Part shown: positions 12,824-50,946 of the stretch, in pieces
How the letters are laid out: each line of letters opens with the position of its first letter
Position numbering within the stretch: position 1 is the stretch's first letter
Source: Clostridiales bacterium
Lineage (GTDB): Bacteria > Bacillota > Clostridia > Christensenellales > UBA1242
Length of the DNA stretch: 50,946 bases
NCBI GenBank assembly: GCA_015069385.1
Contig: SVIS01000003.1
Coordinates: 62,001-112,946, forward strand
Direction of reading: 5' to 3'
Translations under genes and position numbers: made by a program
The notes under the pieces: generated by a model
Database searches by the model: none
Told to the model about the DNA's origin: nothing
Seen by the model: only the letters and a program-made list of their open reading frames with translations

Positions 12824-14347
12824 ATGGCAAAACAACAAGTATATAAATTAGAAAACGGCTCTACTTTAGTTTATCAAAAACAAAGCGCTTTTAATGGCTA
12901 TTCGTTTGTTATTGGTTTTAGGGGTGGTTCCCAATTAGATGGCAAATATAAAGGTTTAAGCCATCTACTTGAGCATTTGCTTTTTAGAACACCAAACCCA
13001 AAAGCAAACAATATTTTATTAGATAACATTGTTAAATATACAGTAAGCCAAAATGCTACAACAACTCAGAACTCTATTTCAGTGGAGTTTTCAACAGTAT
13101 ATAAAAATGTTGATGCAGCGCTTGATAATTGCATGTCTAATTTGCTTACTAGAAAAAAATTCACAAAAGAACAAATTGCTCGCGAAATAGAAATAGTTAA
13201 ACATGAAATTAATATGGTTAAAGATGAAGAAGACTTAGATATGCCTACTGCGCTAGATTGTTTAATAGAAAATTTAGTAAAAAATCCTAATGATTTTTCT
13301 GATACAGACATTTTGGGAAATAGCCGCACTTTAAACATGGTAACTCCAGAAATTTTAACTAACTACGTAAAAAAATATTTTAATTTAGACAATTTAATTG
13401 TATCGGTTACAACAAATAAGTCAATTGAAGATGTTGTTGAACTTTGCAATAAACATATATACCCTAAACTCAAAAATGCTTCTAGTCCAAAATATATTGT
13501 TCCGGCACCAAAAGAAAAACAATTCCTTGAAAAAAATCTTCTTGTTGCATTACCAGATGATTTAACAAAAAGCCTTTCTATTTGTTTACTTTTGCGCGAG
13601 CGCTCTGGTAAAGCAGAAGACATTAATTTAGAATATGCTTATGATATTATTGAAGAATATTTAATTAATCATATGGGTGGCATGCTTTGGGATTCACTCA
13701 GAATGAAAAATCAATTAGTTTATTTAAGCGCATTATATAATTTAAATTTTGACACAGTTAAATTAAAGGCATTTACTGCACTTACAACTGCTCCAAAAAT
13801 GCGTAAAACAATTTCTGAAATTTGTAAAATTATTCGTGAAATTGGCCTAAATGGTGTACCAAAAGAAAAGTTTGAAATGATTAAAAATGTTTTGTGTGAT
13901 ACAGAATCTGCAAACCTTAACAAATTAAAAAAGACTTCTGCTGCAGGCAACTTCTATAATGTTTTGTTTGAAAAAGAATTTATAGATTATAAAAAAGTAA
14001 ATTCTTACATTCAAAAAATGACATGGGAAGAATTTAACCAACATATAATGCCTATTTATTCTGCAGCAAACGTATCTTGTGCAATTCAAGGCAATTTTGA
14101 TGCTCGAAAATGCTATACATTAATAGAAATTGAAAAAATGCTTGGAAATTATTCACATGTAGAATTTGAAAAACAATTAAATCTTCCTCGCATTGAAGAA
14201 ACTCCTATCGTTCAAGATCCAATGCAAGCTTTTGCAAAAATGCTTGGCGTTGACTCTATTGAATTTGAATATGAAACTGAAAATACTGAAGAAAAAAAAT
14301 CTACCCCCCCCCAAGCAGTCACAATCGACAACGAGGTAATCAAATAA
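12824..14347 (+). CDS. M16-family (pitrilysin/insulinase-like) zinc peptidase
   Basis: Inverted zinc-binding motif HxxEH ('HLLEHLLF'). 507 aa. A C9 homopolymer lies near the 3' end at 14304-14312. Confidence 0.7.
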   Translation: MAKQQVYKLENGSTLVYQKQSAFNGYSFVIGFRGGSQLDGKYKGLSHLLEHLLFRTPNPKANNILLDNIVKYTVSQNATTTQNSISVEFSTVYKNVDAALDNCMSNLLTRKKFTKEQIAREIEIVKHEINMVKDEEDLDMPTALDCLIENLVKNPNDFSDTDILGNSRTLNMVTPEILTNYVKKYFNLDNLIVSVTTNKSIEDVVELCNKHIYPKLKNASSPKYIVPAPKEKQFLEKNLLVALPDDLTKSLSICLLLRERSGKAEDINLEYAYDIIEEYLINHMGGMLWDSLRMKNQLVYLSALYNLNFDTVKLKAFTALTTAPKMRKTISEICKIIREIGLNGVPKEKFEMIKNVLCDTESANLNKLKKTSAAGNFYNVLFEKEFIDYKKVNSYIQKMTWEEFNQHIMPIYSAANVSCAIQGNFDARKCYTLIEIEKMLGNYSHVEFEKQLNLPRIEETPIVQDPMQAFAKMLGVDSIEFEYETENTEEKKSTPPQAVTIDNEVIK

Positions 14348-31972: not shown

Positions 31973-33301
31973 CTACGCAATTACTAGTTTAAATGCTGGA
32001 CGAACGCCACAGTCAATATCGTCGTATACACTGCTAAGGTCTATATCACCATCACTGTATACACACCTCACGCAAGAGTCGTTGTTTGATGGGGAACATG
32101 CGAGAGGCGAACGTAACCACCAACAATCGACAGACCCCTCTAATAGTTTTGCTCCACCTTGTGCCGTAGTAAATAGCCCAGTATATTCTAATGTGCTTAA
32201 TAGCCATAATGATTGATTTATAGTTGATTGTGAATATGGTGTTGCTATTATTCGTCCATTTGTGTCATCTTTGTCATATTCTTCACCACCAAGCGTTCTT
32301 GTAGTTATTTGGCTATATACTCCTGAATATTTCTCTGCACCAAAGTTATATTTTGTATATAATCCTGTTGTTCCGTTTACATAGTTTTGTATGGTTGAAT
32401 TGTTATAGTGAATACCATAGTCATTTGCTTCTGTACAATTTTCACTTTCATTAAACGCTATATAGTCACTATCTGTATTTTTTAATATGTATTCTGATAT
32501 AAAGTAGTATGTTCCTGCTGGAACGTTTGTAGAAGTTGTATCAGTAAAAGTATCTACTGCTACCATGCCATCTTCGCCTACTGCATCGCTGCCTGTTGCA
32601 CTATAGGCAAAAGCATACCAGCGAAGGGCTGTGCCGTTTTCATCTTCACCCATCTCTACATAGAGTTTTGTTTTTGCTTTTTCTGTTTCATCTACTAGGC
32701 CTGTCATTGCTCCAGTTTTTAATACCTTTCTATCAAATGTGTATTTTTTAAACTCCATATTGGCGGAGAAATTTGCTTCAAAGTCTCCTATTGTTTCTAT
32801 ATCTAACAATGTAAAGGTTATTGTTAAGTCTTCCTTTTGTGCATCTTTTGCTAGTGTAAATGATTGGGCTGACGTTACTCCGCTTATTGAGGTTATTTCC
32901 TCTGTGCTTGTTGTATCATATGCCACTGGGTTTGGTATGTTACATACTATTGTATAGTCTGACATGTTTGTTATTGTCATTTCTATTACTACTGTGTTTC
33001 CATCGTTTGCTAAGTCTGTAAATGCTAGGTCTGTTCCAAATGATTGGCTCTTTGTTATTTCCTCTGCTGTGCTTCCGCCAACTATTACACTACCCGTTGT
33101 TTCTGTTTTGGTTGTTGTGTTTGTTTTAGTATACGAGGTTACTGTATAGTCCACTTGTACTTTACAATTATGCGCTGTAAAGCCTATTGTTCCGGTGGCG
33201 GTAAGTGAGGCTTGTTTGGCTGCATATATGCCTATTGCCATGGCACATATGCATAAACATATTGCTACTATGTTTATTAGCCATTTATAGTTCTTCTTCA
33301 T
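31973..33301 (-). CDS. Variable surface protein, paralog A (signal peptide, variable Thr/Ser-rich middle, conserved C-terminal domain ending CGVRPAFKLVIA)
   Basis: The first 44 aa and the C-terminal block are identical to the ORF at 42718-44010. RBS 'aagaggag'. Confidence 0.6.
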   Translation of the reverse strand: MKKNYKWLINIVAICLCICAMAIGIYAAKQASLTATGTIGFTAHNCKVQVDYTVTSYTKTNTTTKTETTGSVIVGGSTAEEITKSQSFGTDLAFTDLANDGNTVVIEMTITNMSDYTIVCNIPNPVAYDTTSTEEITSISGVTSAQSFTLAKDAQKEDLTITFTLLDIETIGDFEANFSANMEFKKYTFDRKVLKTGAMTGLVDETEKAKTKLYVEMGEDENGTALRWYAFAYSATGSDAVGEDGMVAVDTFTDTTSTNVPAGTYYFISEYILKNTDSDYIAFNESENCTEANDYGIHYNNSTIQNYVNGTTGLYTKYNFGAEKYSGVYSQITTRTLGGEEYDKDDTNGRIIATPYSQSTINQSLWLLSTLEYTGLFTTAQGGAKLLEGSVDCWWLRSPLACSPSNNDSCVRCVYSDGDIDLSSVYDDIDCGVRPAFKLVIA

Positions 33302-33332: not shown

Positions 33333-33359
33333 ATTCTACCCCCCCCAGCCGATTATCAA
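33333..33359 (-). promoter_or_regulatory. Promoter of paralog A with a G8 tract inside the -35/-10 spacer (15-bp spacer, predicted weak/OFF state)
   Basis: On the gene strand: TTGATA-atcggctGGGGGGGG-TAGAAT. The C8 run is at 33339-33346 on the + strand. Confidence 0.65.
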
Positions 33360-33457
33360 CTAATTTTTTATGTTTTTAAAATAAAAATTTAATATCAATT
33401 ATTTTATAATTACATTAGTAAAATAAAAAACAACCGTATACAACGGTTGTCAATGTG

Positions 33458-33532
33458 TGGTACCCATATGCGGAATCGAACCGCAGACTTCGCCGTGAGA
33501 GGGCGACGTATTAACCTCTTTACCATATGGGC
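33458..33532 (-). tRNA. tRNA with anticodon CTC (Glu-type by anticodon)
   Basis: Folded by hand with acceptor GCCCATA/TATGGGT (G-U at 1-72), anticodon stem TCGCC/GGCGA, loop CTCTCAC, T-arm TGCGGTTCGATTCCGCA and an encoded CCA. A terminator hairpin 'caaccgtatacaacggttg' plus T-run follows. Confidence 0.6.
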
Positions 33533-33738
33533 ATATAGTTTCAATTTTGTGCGAACTATTTAATAGATCTTTTTTATTTGCCTTGGACTTGTGCTTTAAT
33601 TTTAACAAAAGCATATTAGCACACTTTTTATATTTTTGCAACAAAAATTTTTACATATAAATAACATCTAGTTTTTATAAATTTTTAAATTCAATTTTTA
33701 ACTACAAAAAAATAAGCACCAAATTTGGTGCTTTATTT

Positions 33739-34251
33739 TTATTCATCATCATCTTCGTCATCATAATCTTCATAGTCATCATCATCTTCGTAGTCGTCAA
33801 AGTCATCATCAGAGTCAGAGTCAAATTCTTCGCTTAAGTCTTCATCATCAACAATGCCATCAAGGTCATCATCTGGTAAAAGACCATCATCTAAATCATC
33901 ATCGTCATCATCAAGACCCAAGTCTTTAACACTTGACATATCGCCAAGTTCTTCACTATCAGAATCACCCATTTCATCATCTTCATCGCGATTTATATAT
34001 TGGCTCCACTCAGCATCTTCTTCGCCGTCATAATTAGGGTCATTTAAACGATCAGCATAACAACTAGGGCACATAATTTCATCTGGCTGAATATAGTTTG
34101 TTTTACAAATTGGGCAAAGTTCTAATTCAGATTCATCAACCTCTCCACCACCAACTTGCATTTCTTGTTTACAAACGCTGCAATACTTTTCATCTTTTGT
34201 AATATAATTAAGTTCACAACGTGGACATCTAATATAAGTAACTTTTGTCAT
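33739..34251 (-). CDS. Tandem zinc-ribbon protein with an extremely acidic (poly-Asp/Glu) C-terminal tail
   Basis: Two CxxC-N-CxxC ribbons ('CPRCELNY...CSVC', 'CPICKTNY...CPSC'), then about 90 residues that are more than 60% D/E. The start is taken at 'MTKVTY' after the RBS 'agagggga'. Confidence 0.5.
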   Translation of the reverse strand: MTKVTYIRCPRCELNYITKDEKYCSVCKQEMQVGGGEVDESELELCPICKTNYIQPDEIMCPSCYADRLNDPNYDGEEDAEWSQYINRDEDDEMGDSDSEELGDMSSVKDLGLDDDDDDLDDGLLPDDDLDGIVDDEDLSEEFDSDSDDDFDDYEDDDDYEDYDDEDDDE

Positions 34252-34349
34252 AAAATAATCCCCTCTAGGTAATTTAAAAAAATCAACCATAGTATACATA
34301 TGCAAATAATTTATGTCTAGCAATTTTAAGCATTTTTTTATTTTTTAAT

Positions 34350-35636
34350 TTAAATAATTTTAATTTCAACATCAACACTTATTTGAGTATTTTCAATTAT
34401 ATCTTCAAGTGTATTACCCATGCGTATGTATTCCATATAATCATTATAGTTATTTGCATAAAAAATGTCATTAAGTTTTAAAATATCAAGTTTTAGTCTT
34501 TTGCTTTCTTTAGTTGCAAGTGAAATTTGCTGTCTTATAACTTTCCCAATATCTCGTTTTATTTCTTCGCCCACTAAATCATAATTTATTTCTATGTTTT
34601 TTTCATCTATGTCAACAATTTCATCTATATCTAGCGAAATTAATATTTTAACTGACATAAAAGGCATTTTTTTATAAAAAAATGTTTCAGTAAATACTTT
34701 TTTATTTAAAATATCAAAATTAATACTTGCGCCTTTTAATCTTTTGTCGCTAGAAACTGGAACTAAAATTTCTTTAGGACTATAGTCACCGCTTAGCCAA
34801 TCAAGGCCCTGCGATACAAACTCATCTAGTACTACTTCTAGTTTACCATCTTTAAAAATAGCCACCTCGCCACGATTAGAAATAAATTTTGAGCCATCAT
34901 TGCTTGAGGCTTTATTTTCTGAACTACCACCCATGTTTGATTCATTTGTTTGGCTCTGAGCATTGCCCGATTGCTCTTTTTGTACTATGGCAGTTGAACT
35001 AACACCTTGCATTTGTTCACTAGTCAAATTAACAGCATTTATTTTAGAAATACCACTTTGGCTAAAATATCCTTTATAAAAAGAGTCTATGTTAGAATTA
35101 AGTGAAGTTGTGCTAGTTTCTTGCTGATGACACAAAATGTCGCTTAGTCTAAGTCCCGTTTCCTTTTTTAACTCAACACCGGTATTTAACATTTCTTCAA
35201 CACTACTAGAACAGTAAATTAATTGCACAATATTACGAATTTTGTTAGTTCTAATAAGTCTATCTAAAAGACTTGTTACATTTTGTTGTGATATAGTAGA
35301 ACCTATTAATACAAACCGAGTGTGCCCAAGTTTTAATTTACGTCCAAATATTAAATTTAAATTGGCAAAGGCATCGCCAACCGTTTTACCAGATGCTGAT
35401 AAAATTTTGCTATTTTCTGCCAAACTCTCACTTACCGAAGATATACTTATTTCTGAGTAAATAACAATATCGCTATTTTCATTCATGTCAATTCCAACAG
35501 CCGTAACAATTGCCGAGCGAAAAGAAATTGAATTACGATTTATTGCCGAAGGCAAAAGAGTAAAACAGATTATAGCAAAAATAAGCAAAACTGGAGATTT
35601 AAAAACACTTTTAAAAAACTTTTTAGCCTGTTTCAT
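34350..35636 (-). CDS. Spore germination protein, GerAC-like (Ger(x)C family)
   Basis: Third gene of a gerA-type operon with an N-terminal signal/anchor. Its size and position after gerAB match the Ger(x)C family. Confidence 0.55.
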   Translation of the reverse strand: MKQAKKFFKSVFKSPVLLIFAIICFTLLPSAINRNSISFRSAIVTAVGIDMNENSDIVIYSEISISSVSESLAENSKILSASGKTVGDAFANLNLIFGRKLKLGHTRFVLIGSTISQQNVTSLLDRLIRTNKIRNIVQLIYCSSSVEEMLNTGVELKKETGLRLSDILCHQQETSTTSLNSNIDSFYKGYFSQSGISKINAVNLTSEQMQGVSSTAIVQKEQSGNAQSQTNESNMGGSSENKASSNDGSKFISNRGEVAIFKDGKLEVVLDEFVSQGLDWLSGDYSPKEILVPVSSDKRLKGASINFDILNKKVFTETFFYKKMPFMSVKILISLDIDEIVDIDEKNIEINYDLVGEEIKRDIGKVIRQQISLATKESKRLKLDILKLNDIFYANNYNDYMEYIRMGNTLEDIIENTQISVDVEIKII

Positions 35637-36726
35637 GTTTTTTCTCCTTTTTAAGCCAAGTAAAAATTGCAAGCATAAGTGGAACCAAAATTAAAATTGC
35701 TGTTGCAAAATAACAAAGAGTGTTTTCTGCAAAAGCCACATACTTTAAATAGTCATTTAAATATAAAAACTCAGCAGCAAGCAGCATTAAGTTTATAAAT
35801 CCATACGAAATAACTGTATTTTTAAAATTAAATACCTTTTTAAAACATTCATTGGCACAATACATAAATATTGACCCCTGTAAATATATATTAAATAAAA
35901 ATACTACAATTGCAAAAATATCCATATGCCAGCCACTTGCTGTCCCTATTGCATATTGCACAACGTCACTTATTAAATTTGTGTGAAAAAGTGATGTTTC
36001 TTGATATAACAAATAATACATAGCACTAACTACAACAAGAACAACAACGCTAATAATAAATGGAATAAAAATTTGCTTTAGTTTGCCTTTTTTTATTTCA
36101 ATTTTATCCATAAATATTAATAGTGCAAAAAGGTCACCTGTCCAAAAAGAAAGCCTAAAAAGTGAAGAAAAAAATCCCGAAAATCCTTCACGTGTTAATG
36201 CACCCATACCAAAATTAACTTCTGGCACAACAGCAAATGCAATTGCTAAAACAAAACAAATAATTATTACAGGAAAGAAAAACTCACAAGTACGAGCCAT
36301 TGTTCTAATTCCGCTATAAGCCATTGCTGTAATTATTGGTAGCAAACAAATAAACAAATTAAATAAACTAAATTCTTCATCTACAACATCTTTAATAAAT
36401 GTAAAACTATCACTAATAATTAATAGTATTTTAAAAAAGAAAAAAGCAAAAAAGGCAAAATAAATTATTTTAGTAACTATAACACCTAAACGCTTGCAAA
36501 GTATTGCGTAAAAATCTTCATTAGGAAACTTTTTTTTAACCCAAACAAGCAACAATAAAAACAAAAAGTTGAGCGCCATTACAAAAATAATACTTAAAAT
36601 TCCGCCCGAGCCATTATATTCATACAAAAGCGAAGGAAGAGTGGTTAATTTTAATGTAAAAAGAAGTATTCCTGCAATTATACCGGTTTGATGAGCCGAA
36701 ACTGTCTTGCCGTTATTCATTACCAT
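35623..36726 (-). CDS. Spore germination protein, GerAB-like (spore permease family, about 10 TM)
   Basis: 367-aa polytopic membrane protein. Overlaps gerAA by 14 bp. Confidence 0.65.
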   Translation of the reverse strand: MVMNNGKTVSAHQTGIIAGILLFTLKLTTLPSLLYEYNGSGGILSIIFVMALNFLFLLLLVWVKKKFPNEDFYAILCKRLGVIVTKIIYFAFFAFFFFKILLIISDSFTFIKDVVDEEFSLFNLFICLLPIITAMAYSGIRTMARTCEFFFPVIIICFVLAIAFAVVPEVNFGMGALTREGFSGFFSSLFRLSFWTGDLFALLIFMDKIEIKKGKLKQIFIPFIISVVVLVVVSAMYYLLYQETSLFHTNLISDVVQYAIGTASGWHMDIFAIVVFLFNIYLQGSIFMYCANECFKKVFNFKNTVISYGFINLMLLAAEFLYLNDYLKYVAFAENTLCYFATAILILVPLMLAIFTWLKKEKKHETG

Positions 36727-38140
36727 CTGCCTCCTTTTGCCTTATTTTATTTGCGTTAGAAATTGCAACTGGTCGTTTTTTCATATCATAAAGCGGCCGT
36801 TTAAAAATACCATCTTTTAAATCATCTTTAATTTGCGGTGCAAAAGGTGCTAAATATGGTGTACCATAAGCATTTAATGTGTTTAAATAATTTATTATAT
36901 ATACAACGCCACCAATTATACCAAGCAAACCAACTGTTGCTCCTAAAACTACAAAAACAGCCCTTAAAACAGTTAATTGCGATGCCTGAGAAGGAATTGT
37001 ATAAATAGCCATAATACTAACAGCAACAATAATAACTCCCGGCGGAGAAATTAAACCTGCCTTAACACCGGTATCACCAAGCACCAACGCCCCCACAATA
37101 GATGTTGCAAGACCTAAATATTGAGGCAAACGCAAACTTACTTCATATAAAATTTGAAATAAAAGCAAAATAAACATAATTTCTAGCACTGGAGTAAAAG
37201 GTAAATTTCGTGTGGAGTTAGAAATAATAATTATGTAGTTTAATGGTAATGTTGTGTAACTATAAAGCCTAATACTTAAATATAATCCTGGAACTATTGT
37301 AGCAAGCGCTATGCCTATTGTTCTTATAATTCTAATAAAGTTTACAAATACATAATTTGTATAATAATCATTACTACTTTGCAGGTCTTCAAAAACCATA
37401 TATGGAACTGTTAAAACAATAGGGGAACCATCTACCAATATTGCAATTCTGCCCTCTAAAACCTTAGCAACAACAATATCTGGCTTTTCTTGAAACCCCA
37501 CCTGTTCGAACATAGAATATGGTCGTTTTTTTAAAAAGTTGGCTATATAAAACGAGTCAACAACGCCATCTATATCAATCGCCTTTAATTTAGAGGTTAT
37601 TTCTTTTACAATTGATTTATTTGCTATGTTTTTTAAATATAAAACACTAATTTTAGTATTTGTTTCTCTACCAACATTTAAGTTTTCTATTTTTAAATTT
37701 TTAGTTGGAAGTCGCCGTCTTAAAAGTGAAATATTTGTTGCAATAGCCTCTACAAACCCCTCACGTGGTCCATATATATTTGGTGAGGTAGGTGGCTCAC
37801 TTGGCATTCTTGTTGGGAATTTTTCTAAATCTACCGACAAATATTTCTCTTTAAAAACAACAACAACTTGGTTTTTTAAAATATATTCAACAATTTGATT
37901 TCGCTTAATTGGCGCAATATCGGCAGCACGAATAATTTTTGTTTGTAAAGCAATAAAATCAAATTGGTTTTTATATGAAATAATTGGCTCTATAATTTCT
38001 CTTGCAATTGCAGTTTTGTCTACCATGCTTTTTAAAAACATTAATAAAACTTCGCCCGAATTTGTTGTAACTGTGCGACAAATAAAATCTAAATTATTAG
38101 ACAATTCTTTTTTTACTTCTTCTTGCAACAAAAAAGACAT
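36713..38140 (-). CDS. Spore germination protein, GerAA-like (GerA family)
   Basis: 475 aa with a soluble N-domain plus a C-terminal 5-TM region, the typical GerA architecture. First gene of the operon. Confidence 0.7.
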   Translation of the reverse strand: MSFLLQEEVKKELSNNLDFICRTVTTNSGEVLLMFLKSMVDKTAIAREIIEPIISYKNQFDFIALQTKIIRAADIAPIKRNQIVEYILKNQVVVVFKEKYLSVDLEKFPTRMPSEPPTSPNIYGPREGFVEAIATNISLLRRRLPTKNLKIENLNVGRETNTKISVLYLKNIANKSIVKEITSKLKAIDIDGVVDSFYIANFLKKRPYSMFEQVGFQEKPDIVVAKVLEGRIAILVDGSPIVLTVPYMVFEDLQSSNDYYTNYVFVNFIRIIRTIGIALATIVPGLYLSIRLYSYTTLPLNYIIIISNSTRNLPFTPVLEIMFILLLFQILYEVSLRLPQYLGLATSIVGALVLGDTGVKAGLISPPGVIIVAVSIMAIYTIPSQASQLTVLRAVFVVLGATVGLLGIIGGVVYIINYLNTLNAYGTPYLAPFAPQIKDDLKDGIFKRPLYDMKKRPVAISNANKIRQKEADGNE

Positions 38141-38196
38141 ACTACTTAAACTCCTATTTTTACAAGTAGTATGTCTTTATTTAATTAAATATATTC

Positions 38197-39873
38197 TTAA
38201 GATAATTGTACTGTAACTGCAGATGAACCTGTTTGATATTGATTTACAGAAACAGCAGCAATTGTCATGCTTAAAACTTCTGCTTCAAAAAAATCTGTAA
38301 AATCTGCCGTTAATTTTAACCTTGACAACATGCCTTCTGACAATTGTTCTTGAATAAGTTCGCTTGTATATAAAACATGCTCACTTAATGAATAATTGCC
38401 ATCGTTTAATGTTACAACAACTTTAAACTTTTCAGGAACATAAAAGTAAGAAAACACTTCAAAAGTCAACAAATTTGTTTGAGAATTAAAATTTGCATTG
38501 TTTGGTGTTTGCAATGTGTCGTAATATTCGTAAGTATATGTATTGGTAAAATTGCTATTTACATAATAAGTACCCTCGGTTGCAACTGCCTCTATTGTTA
38601 TATTATATTCGCCAGGACCATACACATTTAAAGTGGTTAAATCAAAAGACATTAAACCTTCGCCTTGGGCAAGTTCAATATATTCAACACTATCGGTATC
38701 TGAATTTACCATATAATATACTTTATAGTAAGCAGCGTTTTCTATTACGTTCCAAGTTAAAACTTCATCTTGACAGAATACAACCGGTGTGTCTAATTTT
38801 ATATAATTTACAATTTGTTTTTCTTCTGAATAATCACTATGTGCTTTTTGGGTTGCCCCAAGAGCCCTTACTTTAATTGTAAACTCACCAGGTTGACTAA
38901 AATAATTTGCCATTTCAACAATATTAGAAGTACTTGTAAATACTGTTTGAGTTTGACCGTGAATTACAACAACCTCATATTTTTGTACATTTTCAATTTT
39001 ATCAATAACTAAAGTTGTGCCATAAGAACGTTCAAATATTTCAAAGTTAGGTGTAAGTAATTTTGTATTAATTTTAATATTATGTACTACTAAAGCAACA
39101 ATTATGGCAATTAATACAGCAGCAACACCGCAAACAACAGGTATTAATATTTTTTTGTTAGCCTTTTTTAACCATGATTTTAATTTACATTCTTTTTTTT
39201 CTTTTGGCTGTTTTACCTTTTTTTCTTTTTTAGGTTTTTCTTCACTTTGCTCTTGTTCTTGATCGCTATTCATTTCCTCTTGAGGCTGCTCTACTAAATC
39301 AACTTGTTCTTCCTCATCTTCAGACAAAGAATTTACAACGTTTTCTTCAGATTGATCATTTTGCTCTTGTGCTTGCTCTGTTTTTTTCTTTCTTCCTCTT
39401 TTTTTAGGCTTTTCTTCGTTCGTTACTAGTTCTTCTGTGTTTTCATTAGAAGCAAGAACATCTTCTGCCGTTTCTTGTTCTAAAACATTTTCACTAGCCT
39501 CTTCTGATGGTGTGTTTTCTTCGCTTAACTCTTGCGTATTTTGATTTTCTTCAGTATTTAAAACTTCTTCCTTATTTTTTTTCTTTTTTTCTTTTTTAGG
39601 TTTTTCTTCTTTAACCTTTTTTTCTTTTACCTTTTTATCCTTAGCAGGTGCTTTTTCATTGGTTGGTTGCTCAGGCAAAGAATCTTCAGTTGAAAAAGTT
39701 TCTAAATCTGAATTGGCATTAACATTTTGCTCTGGTTTTGCATCTTGGTTTGTTGGTTTCTCCTCTTTTTTAGAAGTGGTTGAACCAAATAAACTATCTC
39801 CCGATTGTTGCAAAAAATCAAAACTATCGTCAAATAGATTATTATCATCAAAATCATTAAACAAATTTGCCAT
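38197..39873 (-). CDS. Membrane-anchored protein with a long K/E-rich disordered N-terminal region and a C-terminal extracytoplasmic domain
   Basis: About 225 low-complexity residues with KEKK repeats, a single TM helix 'ILIPVVCGVAAVLIAIIVALVV', then about 300 aa of beta-rich domain. Confidence 0.4.
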   Translation of the reverse strand: MANLFNDFDDNNLFDDSFDFLQQSGDSLFGSTTSKKEEKPTNQDAKPEQNVNANSDLETFSTEDSLPEQPTNEKAPAKDKKVKEKKVKEEKPKKEKKKKNKEEVLNTEENQNTQELSEENTPSEEASENVLEQETAEDVLASNENTEELVTNEEKPKKRGRKKKTEQAQEQNDQSEENVVNSLSEDEEEQVDLVEQPQEEMNSDQEQEQSEEKPKKEKKVKQPKEKKECKLKSWLKKANKKILIPVVCGVAAVLIAIIVALVVHNIKINTKLLTPNFEIFERSYGTTLVIDKIENVQKYEVVVIHGQTQTVFTSTSNIVEMANYFSQPGEFTIKVRALGATQKAHSDYSEEKQIVNYIKLDTPVVFCQDEVLTWNVIENAAYYKVYYMVNSDTDSVEYIELAQGEGLMSFDLTTLNVYGPGEYNITIEAVATEGTYYVNSNFTNTYTYEYYDTLQTPNNANFNSQTNLLTFEVFSYFYVPEKFKVVVTLNDGNYSLSEHVLYTSELIQEQLSEGMLSRLKLTADFTDFFEAEVLSMTIAAVSVNQYQTGSSAVTVQLS

Positions 39874-40074
39874 ATTATTCTCCTTCGGCGATAATTAATT
39901 TTGCAAAAAATGCAATAATTAAAAATATTTTAATAAAACCTACTTTTTTTGTCAAATTGATTTAATATTATTAAAATATATTTTATAACTATTATTTATA
40001 TAGTTTACTCCAAAATATATATTTTTATAAAAGGTTATTAAAAAAACATTTGCTTTAGAGCAAATGCTTTCTAA

Positions 40075-40275
40075 TTATTTATTAGCCTCGTTTAATTTAT
40101 TTAATAATAATTCAATATCTATTTCATGAACTTCGGCGGCTTCTTCTAATGTTTCAGAAAGTGCACAAGGACAAGAAAAACAATGCATACCAAACCCCAT
40201 TAAAATATCTTTTAAATTTTCATTTGCAGACAATACTTCTGCAATTGTCATATCTTTATTAAATGCTTTTTTCAT
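40075..40275 (-). CDS. DUF1858-domain small protein (hybrid-cluster-protein-associated redox-like domain)
   Basis: 66 aa, 'GMHCFSCPCA'. A terminator hairpin 'catttgctttagagcaaatg' lies at 40047-40066. Confidence 0.55.
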   Translation of the reverse strand: MKKAFNKDMTIAEVLSANENLKDILMGFGMHCFSCPCALSETLEEAAEVHEIDIELLLNKLNEANK

Positions 40276-40289
40276 ATATTTACCTCTTT

Positions 40290-41420
40290 TTATTCAACAA
40301 ATTCTTCACCACATAAAGAGCAATGTTTTGCCAAAATATTATTTTCGCCACCACAATTTAAACACCTTTTTGTAGTTGTACTATGAGTATATAACCTATC
40401 TAAATTTAAGTCAACAAAAGTTTTTTCTTTCTTTTTAGGTTCAACACTTTTAATTTGTATTTCACCTTGTGTTTTTTCTTCAATTTTAAAATTGCCAAAA
40501 GGAACATATTCATCAATTGGCTCACTATTTATAGAACTTTGTTCTTCATTATTTTGTTCGTTTAATTTTTCATTATACTTAATTTCTTGATTATTTACTA
40601 ATACCTTATTTTCTTCAAAAACATTTTCGTTTAACTCTTCATTTTGGGAAGTATTTTCAGCCACCGTTTCAGTTTGTGCCACAATTTCTTGTTCTTGCTG
40701 TTTTAACTTTTCTTCTTGCGCTTTTATTGCATTATCACTTGCCTCTTGATATTTGCTTGGCAATTTATATTTATATATTCTAACATCACAAAGTTCAAGG
40801 CCTGCAGTATTAAATAGTTTAGAAATAGCCAACTTTAATTTTTCAGCAATTATAGGATTGTTATTTATAACATCATCTAACATAAAATTATTTTTTTCTA
40901 AAACATCTACTATTAAATCATTTACCCATGCCTCTATTAGTTCCTCAGCCTCACCTGTTTTAATAAAGTCATATTCATTTAAAAGAGATTGCATAAATTC
41001 TTGAACATTGCCAACTTTATATGAATAAACTCCAAAAACATGTGCTTTAAAAATGCCATATGCTTTGGTACCCATTTCTACTTTTCTATATGTTTTAAAT
41101 TTGCCCGCATGTAAATTTTTATCAACAAAATATTGCTCTGCTGAAAATTTATCTTTTTGTTTGCCATCTTGAATTTTATCTATGCCAAATTTTCTACACA
41201 TATAAGGTAAGTTTGCAAAGTTTAAAAAATATTCCCCCGTTTCAAACTTATCTGCTACTTTACCATTTTTACCAAGTACAAAAAAATATCCATCTGGCAC
41301 AACAAGTTTTGCATTAATTTTTACCACACCTCTAGCACCAGAGTAATTTGTAACCAAACACTTTAAGTCCTCTTGTTTTGGACATATGTCATATTTGTTT
41401 TTATTCCAAAATAATCCCAT
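40290..41420 (-). CDS. Hypothetical protein with a C-terminal zinc ribbon, possibly SPFH-like (COG4260-type)
   Basis: C-terminal 'CLNCGGEN...CSLCGEEF'. A central coiled-coil/low-complexity region rich in Q, E and N. The N-terminus starts 'MGLFW'. Confidence 0.35.
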   Translation of the reverse strand: MGLFWNKNKYDICPKQEDLKCLVTNYSGARGVVKINAKLVVPDGYFFVLGKNGKVADKFETGEYFLNFANLPYMCRKFGIDKIQDGKQKDKFSAEQYFVDKNLHAGKFKTYRKVEMGTKAYGIFKAHVFGVYSYKVGNVQEFMQSLLNEYDFIKTGEAEELIEAWVNDLIVDVLEKNNFMLDDVINNNPIIAEKLKLAISKLFNTAGLELCDVRIYKYKLPSKYQEASDNAIKAQEEKLKQQEQEIVAQTETVAENTSQNEELNENVFEENKVLVNNQEIKYNEKLNEQNNEEQSSINSEPIDEYVPFGNFKIEEKTQGEIQIKSVEPKKKEKTFVDLNLDRLYTHSTTTKRCLNCGGENNILAKHCSLCGEEFVE

Positions 41421-41630
41421 AATTTAATAGTATCATATTAAAATTTAATTTGCAATTCAACAATAGTAAATTTGTCATACTTTTGTCAGTAAACGCAAAG
41501 CAAAAAATATATTTACATTTTCTAAACAAAAACAATTTAATTACTGATAAATGTATGACAAACAACAATAAAAATTTTTTTTGCTTTATTTAATATTTTT
41601 TTTATGTTACCATATATAAAAGGAAAAAAT

Positions 41631-42623
41631 ATGGAATATATAATATCATACAATTCACAATCAAAAAATTTATGTTTTTTAGAATTAAAAAAATTAAATT
41701 GTAATTTTAAAGAAATTGATAGTTTGTCTAACGAACAAAGCCTTATAAACCTTGATATAGATAATGAAAAATTAATTAAAATTATTAATACAAAACCTAT
41801 AATTTTTTTAAGACATATTATTAAAATTACTAAAAAATTTAATAAAAATTACAATAAAACTGATTTTTTTAACACAATTTTAAATAATTTAAGTAAAAAT
41901 TTAACATTTAGTATTCAATTTTTAAGTAATATTAACAAACAAGATTGCTCAATTAACATTCAAACTTTGGCTGATGAATTAGAAAAGAATAACTATATTT
42001 TAAATGTAAAACAACCAGAGCAAATTATATCAATTTACGAAACACAAAATACCATTATGCTTGGTTTTGGCAACGAAAATTTAAACCTTTCTACCTTTAA
42101 AGGTGGAGCGCCCCATTTTTCTAAAAAACAAGAATTTGTGTCAAGAGCAGAATATAAATTATTAGAAGCAACAAATTTAACTAATTTAGAATTATCTAAA
42201 ATTTCATCTGCTGCTGACCTTGGTGCAGCACCAGGCGGCTGGACAAAAGTACTTGCAAGTAAAAATATTAATGTTCACTCAATAGACCCCGCTCACCTAA
42301 GCCCAGAAATAAAAAACATAAAAAATGTTAAACACTTTCAAATGCTAACTGAAGAGTTTTTGCAAAAATTTAATTTCACATACGATTTAATAGTAAATGA
42401 TATGAAAATGGACATATCGCTTAGTACCGACATAATACTTTCATTCTACCCTCGCCTTAATACAAACGGCTATGTTATTATGACATTTAAATTAGCAAAA
42501 AATTTTACATACTCACAAATCATTAATCAACTAAAACGCCTAACCGAAAAATATAAACTTGTTCTTGCAAGACAACTTTTTCATAACAGAAGCGAAATAA
42601 CAGTTGTGTTAAAAAAATTATAA
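41631..42623 (+). CDS. RlmM/FtsJ-like SAM-dependent RNA 2'-O-methyltransferase
   Basis: 'AADLGAAPGGWTKVL' matches the RrmJ/RlmM SAM-binding motif. An N-terminal THUMP-like region is present. The start is taken at 'MEYIIS'. Confidence 0.55.
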   Translation: MEYIISYNSQSKNLCFLELKKLNCNFKEIDSLSNEQSLINLDIDNEKLIKIINTKPIIFLRHIIKITKKFNKNYNKTDFFNTILNNLSKNLTFSIQFLSNINKQDCSINIQTLADELEKNNYILNVKQPEQIISIYETQNTIMLGFGNENLNLSTFKGGAPHFSKKQEFVSRAEYKLLEATNLTNLELSKISSAADLGAAPGGWTKVLASKNINVHSIDPAHLSPEIKNIKNVKHFQMLTEEFLQKFNFTYDLIVNDMKMDISLSTDIILSFYPRLNTNGYVIMTFKLAKNFTYSQIINQLKRLTEKYKLVLARQLFHNRSEITVVLKKL

Positions 42624-42717
42624 ATAACTTTATAATATGTTTTTTACTTTCAATAAAATAAGCCCCAAAAGTCAAACCACTTTTGAGGCTTCTTTTAATC
42701 TTATATAATTTTTTTTA

Positions 42718-44010
42718 TTATGCTATTACTAGTTTAAAAGCTGGACGAACACCACAATATAAATAAGAGTTTTTTGGTCCACTGAAATTAAGATTACCAG
42801 ACTCCGTCACAACCGATATTCGAGATTCAATACCAGCAGTTTGAGTTGTGCGTAACCACCAACTTTTATTAGAACCACCAAGCGAGCTTGCCTTACCTTG
42901 CACCGATGAGAATAGACCGCGATATTCTGATGTGCTTAATAGCCATAAAGATTGATCTATAGTTGATTGTGTTGTTGGGTTTGCTATGGTTTCATAATTT
43001 GAACCAAACTCTATATATTGCTCACCACCAAGCGTTCTTGTAGTTATTTGCCCATACACTCCTGAATATTTGTCTGCACTAAAGTTATATTTTGTATATA
43101 ACCCTGTTGTACCATTTACATAATTTTGTACGGTTGAATTGTTGTAATTTACGCTACCTGTTGAATCAAAATCAATACTGTCACTATCAATATTTTTTAG
43201 TACATATTCTGATATAAAGTAGTATGTACCTGCTGGAACTGATGTAGAATCTGTTGCTGTAAACTCATCTACTGCTACCATGCCATTTGCACCTACTTCT
43301 TCGCTGCCTGTTGCACTATAGGCAAAAGCATACCAGCGAAGGGCTGTGCCGTTTTCATCTTCACCCATCTCTACATAGAGTTTTGTTTTTGCGTTTTCTG
43401 TTGTATCTGGTAAGCCACTCATTGCTCCAGTTTTTAATGCACTTCTATCAAATGTATATTTTTTAAACTCTAGGTTTGCATCAAATATTGCTGATATTTC
43501 TGAGGCGGTTTCTATGTCTGTTAAAGTGAATTTTATTGTTATATCTTTATACTCACCTTTTGTTGATAATACAAATGATTGGTGTGAGGTTACTCCTTGT
43601 ATTGTTGTTATTTGGGTTGTTGTACTATTTGAATCATACGCTACTGGGTTTGGTATGTTACATAGTACTGGAAAGTCTGAGTCGCTTGTTATTTTTAAGT
43701 TTATTGTTATTGTATTTCCTTCTTCTACCAAATCACTAAAGTACATTGCTGGAAGAGGTAGTTCTTCTCCTTCTTCATCTACTAGTGTTTCTGCTATTGT
43801 TGCTTCTGTTCCTGTTAGTTTTGTGGTGAAATCTTCATCATATGCATCTATTGTTCCTGACACCTTTACCTTACAGCCATGCGCTGTAAAGCCTATTGTT
43901 CCGGTGGCAGTAAGTGAGGCTTGTTTTGCTGCATATATGCCTATTGCCATGGCACATATGCATAAACATATTGCTACTATGTTTATTAGCCATTTATAGT
44001 TCTTTTTCAT
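42718..44010 (-). CDS. Variable surface protein, paralog B
   Basis: 430 aa. Its N-terminal 44 aa and the C-terminal 'CGVRPAFKLVIA' are identical to paralog A, and the middle has diverged. Confidence 0.6.
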   Translation of the reverse strand: MKKNYKWLINIVAICLCICAMAIGIYAAKQASLTATGTIGFTAHGCKVKVSGTIDAYDEDFTTKLTGTEATIAETLVDEEGEELPLPAMYFSDLVEEGNTITINLKITSDSDFPVLCNIPNPVAYDSNSTTTQITTIQGVTSHQSFVLSTKGEYKDITIKFTLTDIETASEISAIFDANLEFKKYTFDRSALKTGAMSGLPDTTENAKTKLYVEMGEDENGTALRWYAFAYSATGSEEVGANGMVAVDEFTATDSTSVPAGTYYFISEYVLKNIDSDSIDFDSTGSVNYNNSTVQNYVNGTTGLYTKYNFSADKYSGVYGQITTRTLGGEQYIEFGSNYETIANPTTQSTIDQSLWLLSTSEYRGLFSSVQGKASSLGGSNKSWWLRTTQTAGIESRISVVTESGNLNFSGPKNSYLYCGVRPAFKLVIA

Positions 44011-44041
44011 ATATCTTTCTCCTTTTTAATGATATATTTGT

Positions 44042-44070
44042 ATTCTACCCCCCCCCCAGCCGGTTGTCAA
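44042..44070 (-). promoter_or_regulatory. Promoter of paralog B with a G10 tract in the spacer (consensus -35 TTGACA, 17-bp spacer, -10 TAGAAT; predicted ON state)
   Basis: On the gene strand: TTGACA-accggctGGGGGGGGGG-TAGAAT. The C10 run is at 44048-44057. Confidence 0.7.
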
Positions 44071-50273: not shown

Positions 50274-50946
50274 TTAACCTTGATAGTTGTATACTTTAGT
50301 AGCATTTGTAAGAGGGGCGTTGCTTGTGTCAATAGTTATAGCGTTCCATTCTTCTTCTGTGCCAGTATAATTTACTGTAGTTAATAAAGGACAATTCATA
50401 AATGCATTTGTTTTAATTTCTGTCAAACTATTTGAAAGAGTGAGATTTTCTAAATTAACAGAACTTGAAAAGCAAGAGGTTGATATAATTGTTATTCCAC
50501 GTCCAATTACAAGTTTAGTAATTTTAAAGTTAGTACAAGCATACTCGCCAATGCTCGTAACACTATCTGGTATTATAAATGTTCCTGTTATTCCACTACA
50601 ACCATTAAATGCATACATTCCAATACTAGTTAATGTTGAAGGTAGGGTTATACTAGTAATTCCGGTGCAACCATAAAATGAAGATTTTGCTCCTGGGTTT
50701 GTGTCTGGAATACTTACAACTGTACATTCTTCACCATTAAAAATAACTTTTGATGGAATTATTAAATCGCCAGTTGGTTTATTAGATGAGTTTGCTACCA
50801 CGCTTAATGTTTTTGCATCTGCATCTAAAACCGAGAATGTTAGATTGGTATAAGTAGAAGCATCTAATACTTCTTCTTCGACTACTGGCTCAGTGCTTTG
50901 CAATTGAATATTAAAACCATAGTTGCCGGTTACTGATTCATTATCA
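50274..50946 (-). CDS. BspA-type leucine-rich-repeat (LRR_5) surface protein, 5'-partial (runs off the window end)
   Basis: Repeats such as 'CTGITSITLPSTLTSIGMYAFNGCSGIT' and 'IPDSVTSIGEYAC'. The reading frame stays open to 50946. Confidence 0.6.
   Translation of the reverse strand, partial: DNESVTGNYGFNIQLQSTEPVVEEEVLDASTYTNLTFSVLDADAKTLSVVANSSNKPTGDLIIPSKVIFNGEECTVVSIPDTNPGAKSSFYGCTGITSITLPSTLTSIGMYAFNGCSGITGTFIIPDSVTSIGEYACTNFKITKLVIGRGITIISTSCFSSSVNLENLTLSNSLTEIKTNAFMNCPLLTTVNYTGTEEEWNAITIDTSNAPLTNATKVYNYQG

Follow-up and report, generated by a model that had tools for sequence, protein, structure and literature searches.

Promoter-spacer poly-G tracts as a candidate slipped-strand tuning device in a paralogous family of probably exported proteins from uncultured gut Clostridia

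Introduction

Contingency loci that vary by slipped-strand mispairing are a classic trait of pathogens adapted to their hosts (among them Neisseria, Haemophilus, Campylobacter, Helicobacter, Treponema, and Mycoplasma), and the phase variation described in gut commensals is mostly tied to invertible promoters. Here we describe a candidate for the slipped-strand class in the uncultured gut bacterium represented by the metagenome-assembled genome (MAG) "Clostridiales bacterium" (assembly GCA_015069385.1, locus tags E7376_; species 1 below). A 50,946-nucleotide (nt) stretch of its DNA (contig SVIS01000003.1, positions 62,001 to 112,946), hereafter the window, carries two paralogous genes, copy A and copy B, whose promoters each contain a run of G residues between the -35 and -10 hexamers.

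Among the closest described systems, the vlp/vmm-type loci of Mycoplasma, a low-GC lineage related to the Firmicutes, are multigene families of surface proteins in which a conserved promoter/leader cassette carries a repeat (poly-A or TA) in the promoter spacer. They differ from the present family in their A or TA repeats and lipobox-bearing lipoproteins, whereas here we find poly-G and no canonical lipobox in a walled, spore-forming organism. The poly-G tracts of Campylobacter jejuni lie mostly within reading frames, where they act as translational ON/OFF switches, unlike the promoter-spacer tracts reported below; what the two share is an AT-rich genome, many tracts of G8 to G11, and a modal length of nine. 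In C. jejuni that mode has been attributed to mutational bias, with G8 tracts being insertion biased and G11 tracts deletion biased (PMC3401435).

Two systems come closer in promoter geometry. At porA of Neisseria meningitidis, the gain or loss of a single G in the spacer between -35 and -10 shifts the transcript level stepwise (PMC3899988). The likeness to our loci lies in a G homopolymer that occupies the spacer of a sigma-70-type promoter ahead of a gene for a surface protein and in an output that is graded rather than strictly ON/OFF, as we propose here; the difference is that porA is a single gene of a Gram-negative pathogen, whereas the present cassette is found on at least eight paralogues of spore-forming, uncultured gut Clostridia that are known from sequence alone. 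In Treponema pallidum, poly-G is found between the -35 and -10 elements of tp0126 and in several tpr promoters (tprE/G/J and tprL), and at tprL tract lengths of 7 to 11 coexist, with G9 predominant and promoter activity dependent on length (PMC7864442). As in our case, several paralogues that encode putative surface proteins carry such tracts. However, T. pallidum belongs to the Spirochaetota, its products are outer-membrane beta-barrels rather than proteins with a signal helix, a beta-sandwich, and a C-type-lectin-like or leucine-rich-repeat (LRR) domain, and both the variation and its effect have been demonstrated experimentally there, while for the present family both are predicted from the nucleotide sequence. 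The class of mechanism is thus already known; what is new is the lineage, the protein family, and the portable cassette. Our literature searches recovered no prior description of such tracts for Clostridia or for DUF6273 proteins, in keeping with the first-pass annotation of the window, which had taken the family to be undescribed for this lineage.

Results

Both genes lie on the minus strand. Copy A (positions 31973 to 33301, ATG at 33301) encodes a protein of 442 amino acids (aa), and copy B (positions 42718 to 44010, ATG at 44010; NCBI E7376_01670) encodes one of 430 aa with the same domain architecture. The copy A promoter (33333 to 33359, minus strand) consists of TTGATA (33359 to 33354), a 15-bp spacer made of ATCGGCT followed by a G8 homopolymer (33339 to 33346), and TAGAAT (33338 to 33333). 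The corresponding promoter of copy B (44042 to 44070, minus strand) consists of TTGACA (44070 to 44065), a 17-bp spacer made of ACCGGCT followed by a G10 homopolymer (44048 to 44057), which is the proposed slippage site, and TAGAAT (44047 to 44042). This direct reading of the sequence agrees with the first-pass annotation on the two genes and their promoters. Homology between the two loci at the DNA level begins just upstream of the -35 hexamer, and from there to the ribosome-binding site (RBS) the sole indel is the 2-nt difference in the length of the G tract, just as that annotation had it when it stated that the promoters differ mainly in their G runs. It had further listed the leader, RBS, -10 element, and C terminus as identical. 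An alignment of the proteins, which are 61% identical overall, sustains this for the 44-aa leader (residues 1 to 44) and the last 12 residues (CGVRPAFKLVIA), and TAGAAT is common to both promoters; the RBSs, however, are alike but not identical.

The consensus geometry claimed for copy B was recovered independently in a promoter consensus scan, where its promoter matched at 11 of 12 hexamer positions with a 17-bp spacer and was the top-scoring candidate in its region. The copy A promoter was not called, because the scan accepts only spacers of 16 to 18 bp and its 15-bp spacer falls outside that range. At copy A there is also an alternative -10-like element, GATAAT, formed by the TTGATA variant and the following AT, with TTTAAA 17 bp upstream of it (33352 to 33380, minus strand). 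This pair matches at 9 of 12 positions, which is the chance frequency in DNA so rich in AT; transcription from it would place the G tract within the 5' untranslated region (UTR).

The two promoters are members of a larger set. We surveyed 134,652 bp of nonoverlapping species-1 sequence, scanning for G runs and leader-coding genes around family members, and found at least eight genes with the same promoter/5' UTR/leader cassette, six with G9, one with G8, and one with G10; the suspicion that a multigene family and not a chance pair was involved is thereby borne out. In addition to copies A and B, these are the genes for P0003 (L004:9955), P0005 (L008:9955), a frameshifted paralogue (L008:1638), P0013 (L010:9954), the LRR_5 protein P0027 (L013:9957), and a 520-aa DUF6273 protein (L013:19107), all with a G9 tract and a 16-bp spacer. 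When aligned, the eight cassettes are near-identical from TTGACA to the RBS, with indels confined to the G tract. The family leader reads MKKNxKWLIN..CLCxCAxAIGxYAAKQASLTATGTIGFTA. Protein searches recovered P0003 to P0007, P0010, P0014, and P0016 as paralogues in the same MAG and a group of LRR_5 proteins (P0021 to P0029) that have only the leader of about 45 residues in common with the DUF6273 paralogues. One of the latter type extends to the end of the window (50274 to 50946, minus strand): the sequence DNESVTGNYGFNIQLQSTEP matches the P0021 to P0027 type, and what is present is the C-terminal two-thirds, with the 5' end and promoter lying beyond the window, so that the window probably contains three family genes. 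Alignment of copy A, copy B, and P0002 to P0008 showed the paralogues to be mosaics, in which two leader subtypes, two types of N domain, and several types of C domain are combined independently; this independent assortment of modules suggests segmental gene conversion within the family.

Long G or C runs are rare in this DNA, whose GC content is about 30%. In the window, runs of G7 or longer gave nine overlapping hits at three sites, against 0.27 expected from shuffled sequences, and over the whole species-1 survey nine G/C runs of at least 8 were observed where 0.067 was expected, eight of the nine being at the family promoter position. The expectation that such runs would be improbable by chance is thus upheld.

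The tract also recurs in other species. A leader-based scan of a genome collection recovered one locus (L005), a homologue in the MAG "Clostridia bacterium RGIG4566" from roe-deer rectum with the promoter TTGACA-ACTTCGC-G9-TACACT. A contig from the European Nucleotide Archive (ENA) that encodes the same protein as the roe-deer gene carries two paralogues with TTGACA-ACTT[C/T]GC-G9-TACACT, both with a 16-bp spacer. In a third species (ERZ27316975), the promoter is TTGACA-AAATGTATCC-G9-TACAAT with a 19-bp spacer, and in a fourth (ERZ964367, a gut metagenome), it is TTGACA-ACGC-G9-ATA-TATAAT with a 16-bp spacer and a 5' UTR of about 100 nt. Across these four species, the homopolymer and its place in the spacer are conserved, while the neighboring spacer bases, the -10 hexamer, and the UTR have diverged. 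The retention of a G tract while its flanking bases diverge, in genomes of 30 to 34% GC, argues for selection on the tract itself; the two marks of a tract maintained by selection, an excess over base composition and conservation across homologues, were both observed. Overall, 10 of 12 tracts (the eight species-1 cassettes and four from the three other species) are exactly G9. No tract was present in L006, a much more distant relative, among the matches listed in a leader scan of metagenome contigs, and a promoter-pattern scan of viral contigs gave no hits.

At their C termini, the products of both copies contain the Pfam domain DUF6273 (PF19789), scored above the gathering threshold; in some paralogues, an LRR_5 domain stands in its place. 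An AlphaFold model (alignment of 21 sequences; predicted local distance difference test score of 75) consists of an N-terminal helix (residues 5 to 26), a beta-sandwich (32 to 184), and a mixed alpha/beta domain (190 to 430). The beta-sandwich is adhesin- and pilin-like, and the DUF6273 domain is C-type-lectin-like. The N terminus combines a basic n-region with a hydrophobic helix and a candidate signal-peptidase site (I-Y-A|A), and these signal-type features make export of the family proteins likely. The copy A and copy B proteins have no C-terminal LPXTG, no canonical lipobox, and no other anchor motif that we could see. With NCBIfam models, only subthreshold N-terminal similarity to an enterococcal LPXTG-protein leader was recovered, and an assignment of the family as sortase substrates was set aside, there being no C-terminal LPXTG. 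The variable surface antigens of the first-pass annotation therefore hold only in part: the proteins are probably exported and look like ligand-binding, adhesin-like products, but their retention and exposure at the surface we can only infer. As a separate observation, an L-C-x-C-A motif that does not match a canonical lipobox lies within the predicted signal/anchor helix of both window proteins (residues 16 to 20); L16, C17, and C19 are invariant, and A20 is found in at least 90% of 21 homologues.

The surroundings are chromosomal, with housekeeping and sporulation/germination genes (GerA/GerAC/spore permease, YabP/YqfD, Ku/LigD, MnmG, ThrRS, and NAD metabolism). A search with RpoB recovered MAGs of Clostridia/Firmicutes, those whose source is named beginning at about 72% identity. 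Directly upstream of copy A is a tRNA-Glu(CTC) gene (33458 to 33532, minus strand), followed by its terminator hairpin (33429 to 33451, minus strand) between the tRNA and the copy A promoter; together they shield the copy A cassette from read-through. Downstream of copy B, a terminator-like hairpin (42660 to 42691, minus strand) is consistent with copy B being a monocistronic unit. A search of the 5' region against Rfam returned tRNA-Glu only.

The exact proteins were found in the E7376_ MAG and on metagenome contigs of the Joint Genome Institute (JGI) from samples 3300031555, 3300032167, and 3300018475. On one of these contigs (L007; sample 3300018475, Ga0187907_10083885, positions 1 to 1675), the upstream region (tRNA-Glu and G8 promoter) and 5' half of copy A are joined to the 3' half of copy B and its downstream genes (protein P0002); this join was either created in assembly, by way of the middle segment that both copies share, or marks genuine recombination or duplication between the paralogues. 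On L008 (1682 to 2970), the paralogue with a G9 promoter changes frame (0 to 2) close to a GGGGG run around position 2680, and its conserved C terminus (WWLRSP...GIRPAFKLVIA) continues in another frame; this is either a sign of pseudogene formation, an error in the sequence, or a further site of slippage. Immediately upstream of P0003, an open reading frame (ORF) of 3,257 aa (L004, 101 to 9874) has no Pfam hit on record.

The one G/C run of at least 8 in the surveyed species-1 sequence that lies outside the family promoters is a third long run of the window, overlooked in the first-pass annotation: a C9 (14304 to 14312, plus strand) within the final 15 codons of a gene for an M16-family peptidase (12824 to 14347). 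On the minus strand, its context (CTT-G9-TAGAT) bears a loose likeness to the cassette, and we rejected it as a family promoter. Slippage at this run would swap only a short C-terminal tail of the peptidase: C8 and C11 variants would end a few residues early, and C7 and C10 variants would have about 34 extra residues.

Other routes to variation were also considered. An inverton was rejected because neither promoter is flanked by inverted repeats, only AT-rich low-complexity inverted matches being present, and no recombinase domain turned up among the Pfam-scanned ORFs of the window or in the annotations already available for the genes that separate and surround the two copies. DUF6273/C-type-lectin-fold proteins are also known as targets of diversity-generating retroelements (DGRs), and for this window we rejected a DGR as well: the last 200 nt of either gene matched only the 3' ends of paralogues when compared with the window and loci L001 to L010, leaving no template-like repeat, and no reverse transcriptase domain was found among the scanned window ORFs. 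The family differs in this respect from the DGR targets, and its diversity would come from paralogy and putative promoter slippage.

Discussion

We think it rather probable that the homopolymeric G runs of the promoter spacer are hypermutable and serve as a slipped-strand "volume control" of the kind described for porA and for tp0126 of Treponema. Under this proposal, a strong sigma-A-type promoter, the 5' UTR, and a signal/anchor leader of about 45 codons would form a single cassette that has been copied, or gene converted, onto many genes for exported binding proteins. Slipped-strand mispairing at replication would add or remove one G, changing the spacing between -35 and -10 and with it the contact of the RNA polymerase holoenzyme with both hexamers. 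A G10 tract (17 bp; copy B) would be optimal, G9 (16 bp) would be the intermediate, modal resting state, and G8 (15 bp; copy A) would be poor. Each paralogue would thereby be set higher or lower on its own, in a reversible manner, and cells of one clone would differ in the repertoire of these proteins that they display. The first-pass annotation had proposed an ON/OFF phase switch; its promoter-spacer geometry stands, but the modal G9 and 16-bp spacer speak for graded adjustment to either side of an intermediate resting level rather than for a clean ON/OFF pair.

Several lines of evidence favor slippage: the eight uniform cassettes with tract lengths of 8, 9, and 10, the retention of G9 in three further species, the excess of long runs, the 11/12 promoter of copy B, a modal length of nine as in C. 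jejuni and T. pallidum, the adhesin- or lectin-like exported products, and the mosaic paralogues, whose exchangeable modules resemble those of other contingency families. A further hint, and the only direct one of heterogeneity, is that a 30.4-kb contig (L002, sample 3300032167) ends inside the G tract of copy B. The rate of slippage, the transcriptional effect of each length, and the selective agent, which may be host immunity, phage, or substrate/partner binding, are what we infer beyond these data.

Other observations weigh against slippage. The break in L002 could equally be caused by Illumina poly-G errors. Lengths of 8, 9, and 10 are seen between paralogues only, and where the same locus could be compared across assemblies the length was unchanged: copy A has G8 in all three samples (the window, L003 from 3300032167, and L007 from 3300018475), and the roe-deer-type gene P0009 has G9 in both of its assemblies (L005 and L009), the samples in either comparison being possibly nonindependent. 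Two leader-bearing genes, for the LRR protein P0029 and for a 241-aa product (L004:14302), are tractless, with an ordinary AT-rich 17-bp spacer. The 19-bp spacer of the third species at G9 does not fit a simple model in which G9 is near optimal. The preponderance of exactly G9 among the 12 tracts could also mean that selection favors a fixed G9 element, and this leads to the principal alternative, in which the run is a fixed cis-regulatory element, such as the binding site of a regulator dedicated to the family or a rigid GC block governing the basal strength of the promoter, inherited with the cassette, the G8 and G10 forms being rare neutral or slightly deleterious indels. This explanation, which we hold unlikely but take seriously, would account for the constancy of G9 in four species and of G8 at copy A in three samples, and outside the G tract the spacer measures 7 nt in three of the four species, so that the 16-bp total looks conserved. 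It sits less well with the conservation between species of the homopolymer but not of the adjacent bases, which is unusual for a protein-binding site, and with the confinement of indels to the tract in the eight cassettes. Moreover, measurements in C. jejuni and T. pallidum (PMC3401435, PMC7864442) show poly-G tracts of at least 8 to be unstable, and for genuine contingency tracts the reported mutational equilibrium likewise has G9 as its mode (PMC3401435).

The near identity of the cassettes within species 1, the mosaic module structure of the paralogues, and the joining of copy A and copy B halves on L007 would also be in line with passive hitchhiking, whereby recent duplication or gene conversion disseminated the cassette, with the G run as a functionless passenger. 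We regard this as improbable, since it leaves unexplained why G9 has been retained at the same promoter position in diverged cassettes of three other species whose genomes, too, are of 30 to 34% GC. That the tracts are sequencing or assembly artifacts (two-color Illumina poly-G or homopolymer miscalls) is hardly credible: although homopolymer lengths are error prone and one contig ends in a tract, four species have the tract at one and the same promoter position, in JGI and ENA assemblies that were produced independently by different projects with different assemblers, and the tracts lie in contig interiors with unique sequence on either side.

Returning to slippage, the observations can be assembled, tentatively and as a possibility that we would not yet call probable, into a genome-wide contingency system of uncultured, spore-forming Clostridia of the herbivore gut. 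A portable cassette whose poly-G sits at its mutational equilibrium of G9 (16 bp), where a single slip in one direction would bring full activity (17 bp) and in the other minimal activity (15 bp), would have been spread by gene conversion onto genes with differing binding domains (DUF6273 and LRR_5), resulting in combinatorial variation of the binding repertoire that is heritable but reversible. The cassette recurs in four uncultured species of Clostridia from animal guts, and the leader-bearing DUF6273 and LRR proteins are thereby flagged as probable interaction factors. If the cassette does switch, it would extend repeat-mediated switching to commensal Firmicutes, across at least eight adhesin-like genes, and the spectra of tract length at each locus would offer a cheap metagenomic readout of population heterogeneity and selection in the gut.

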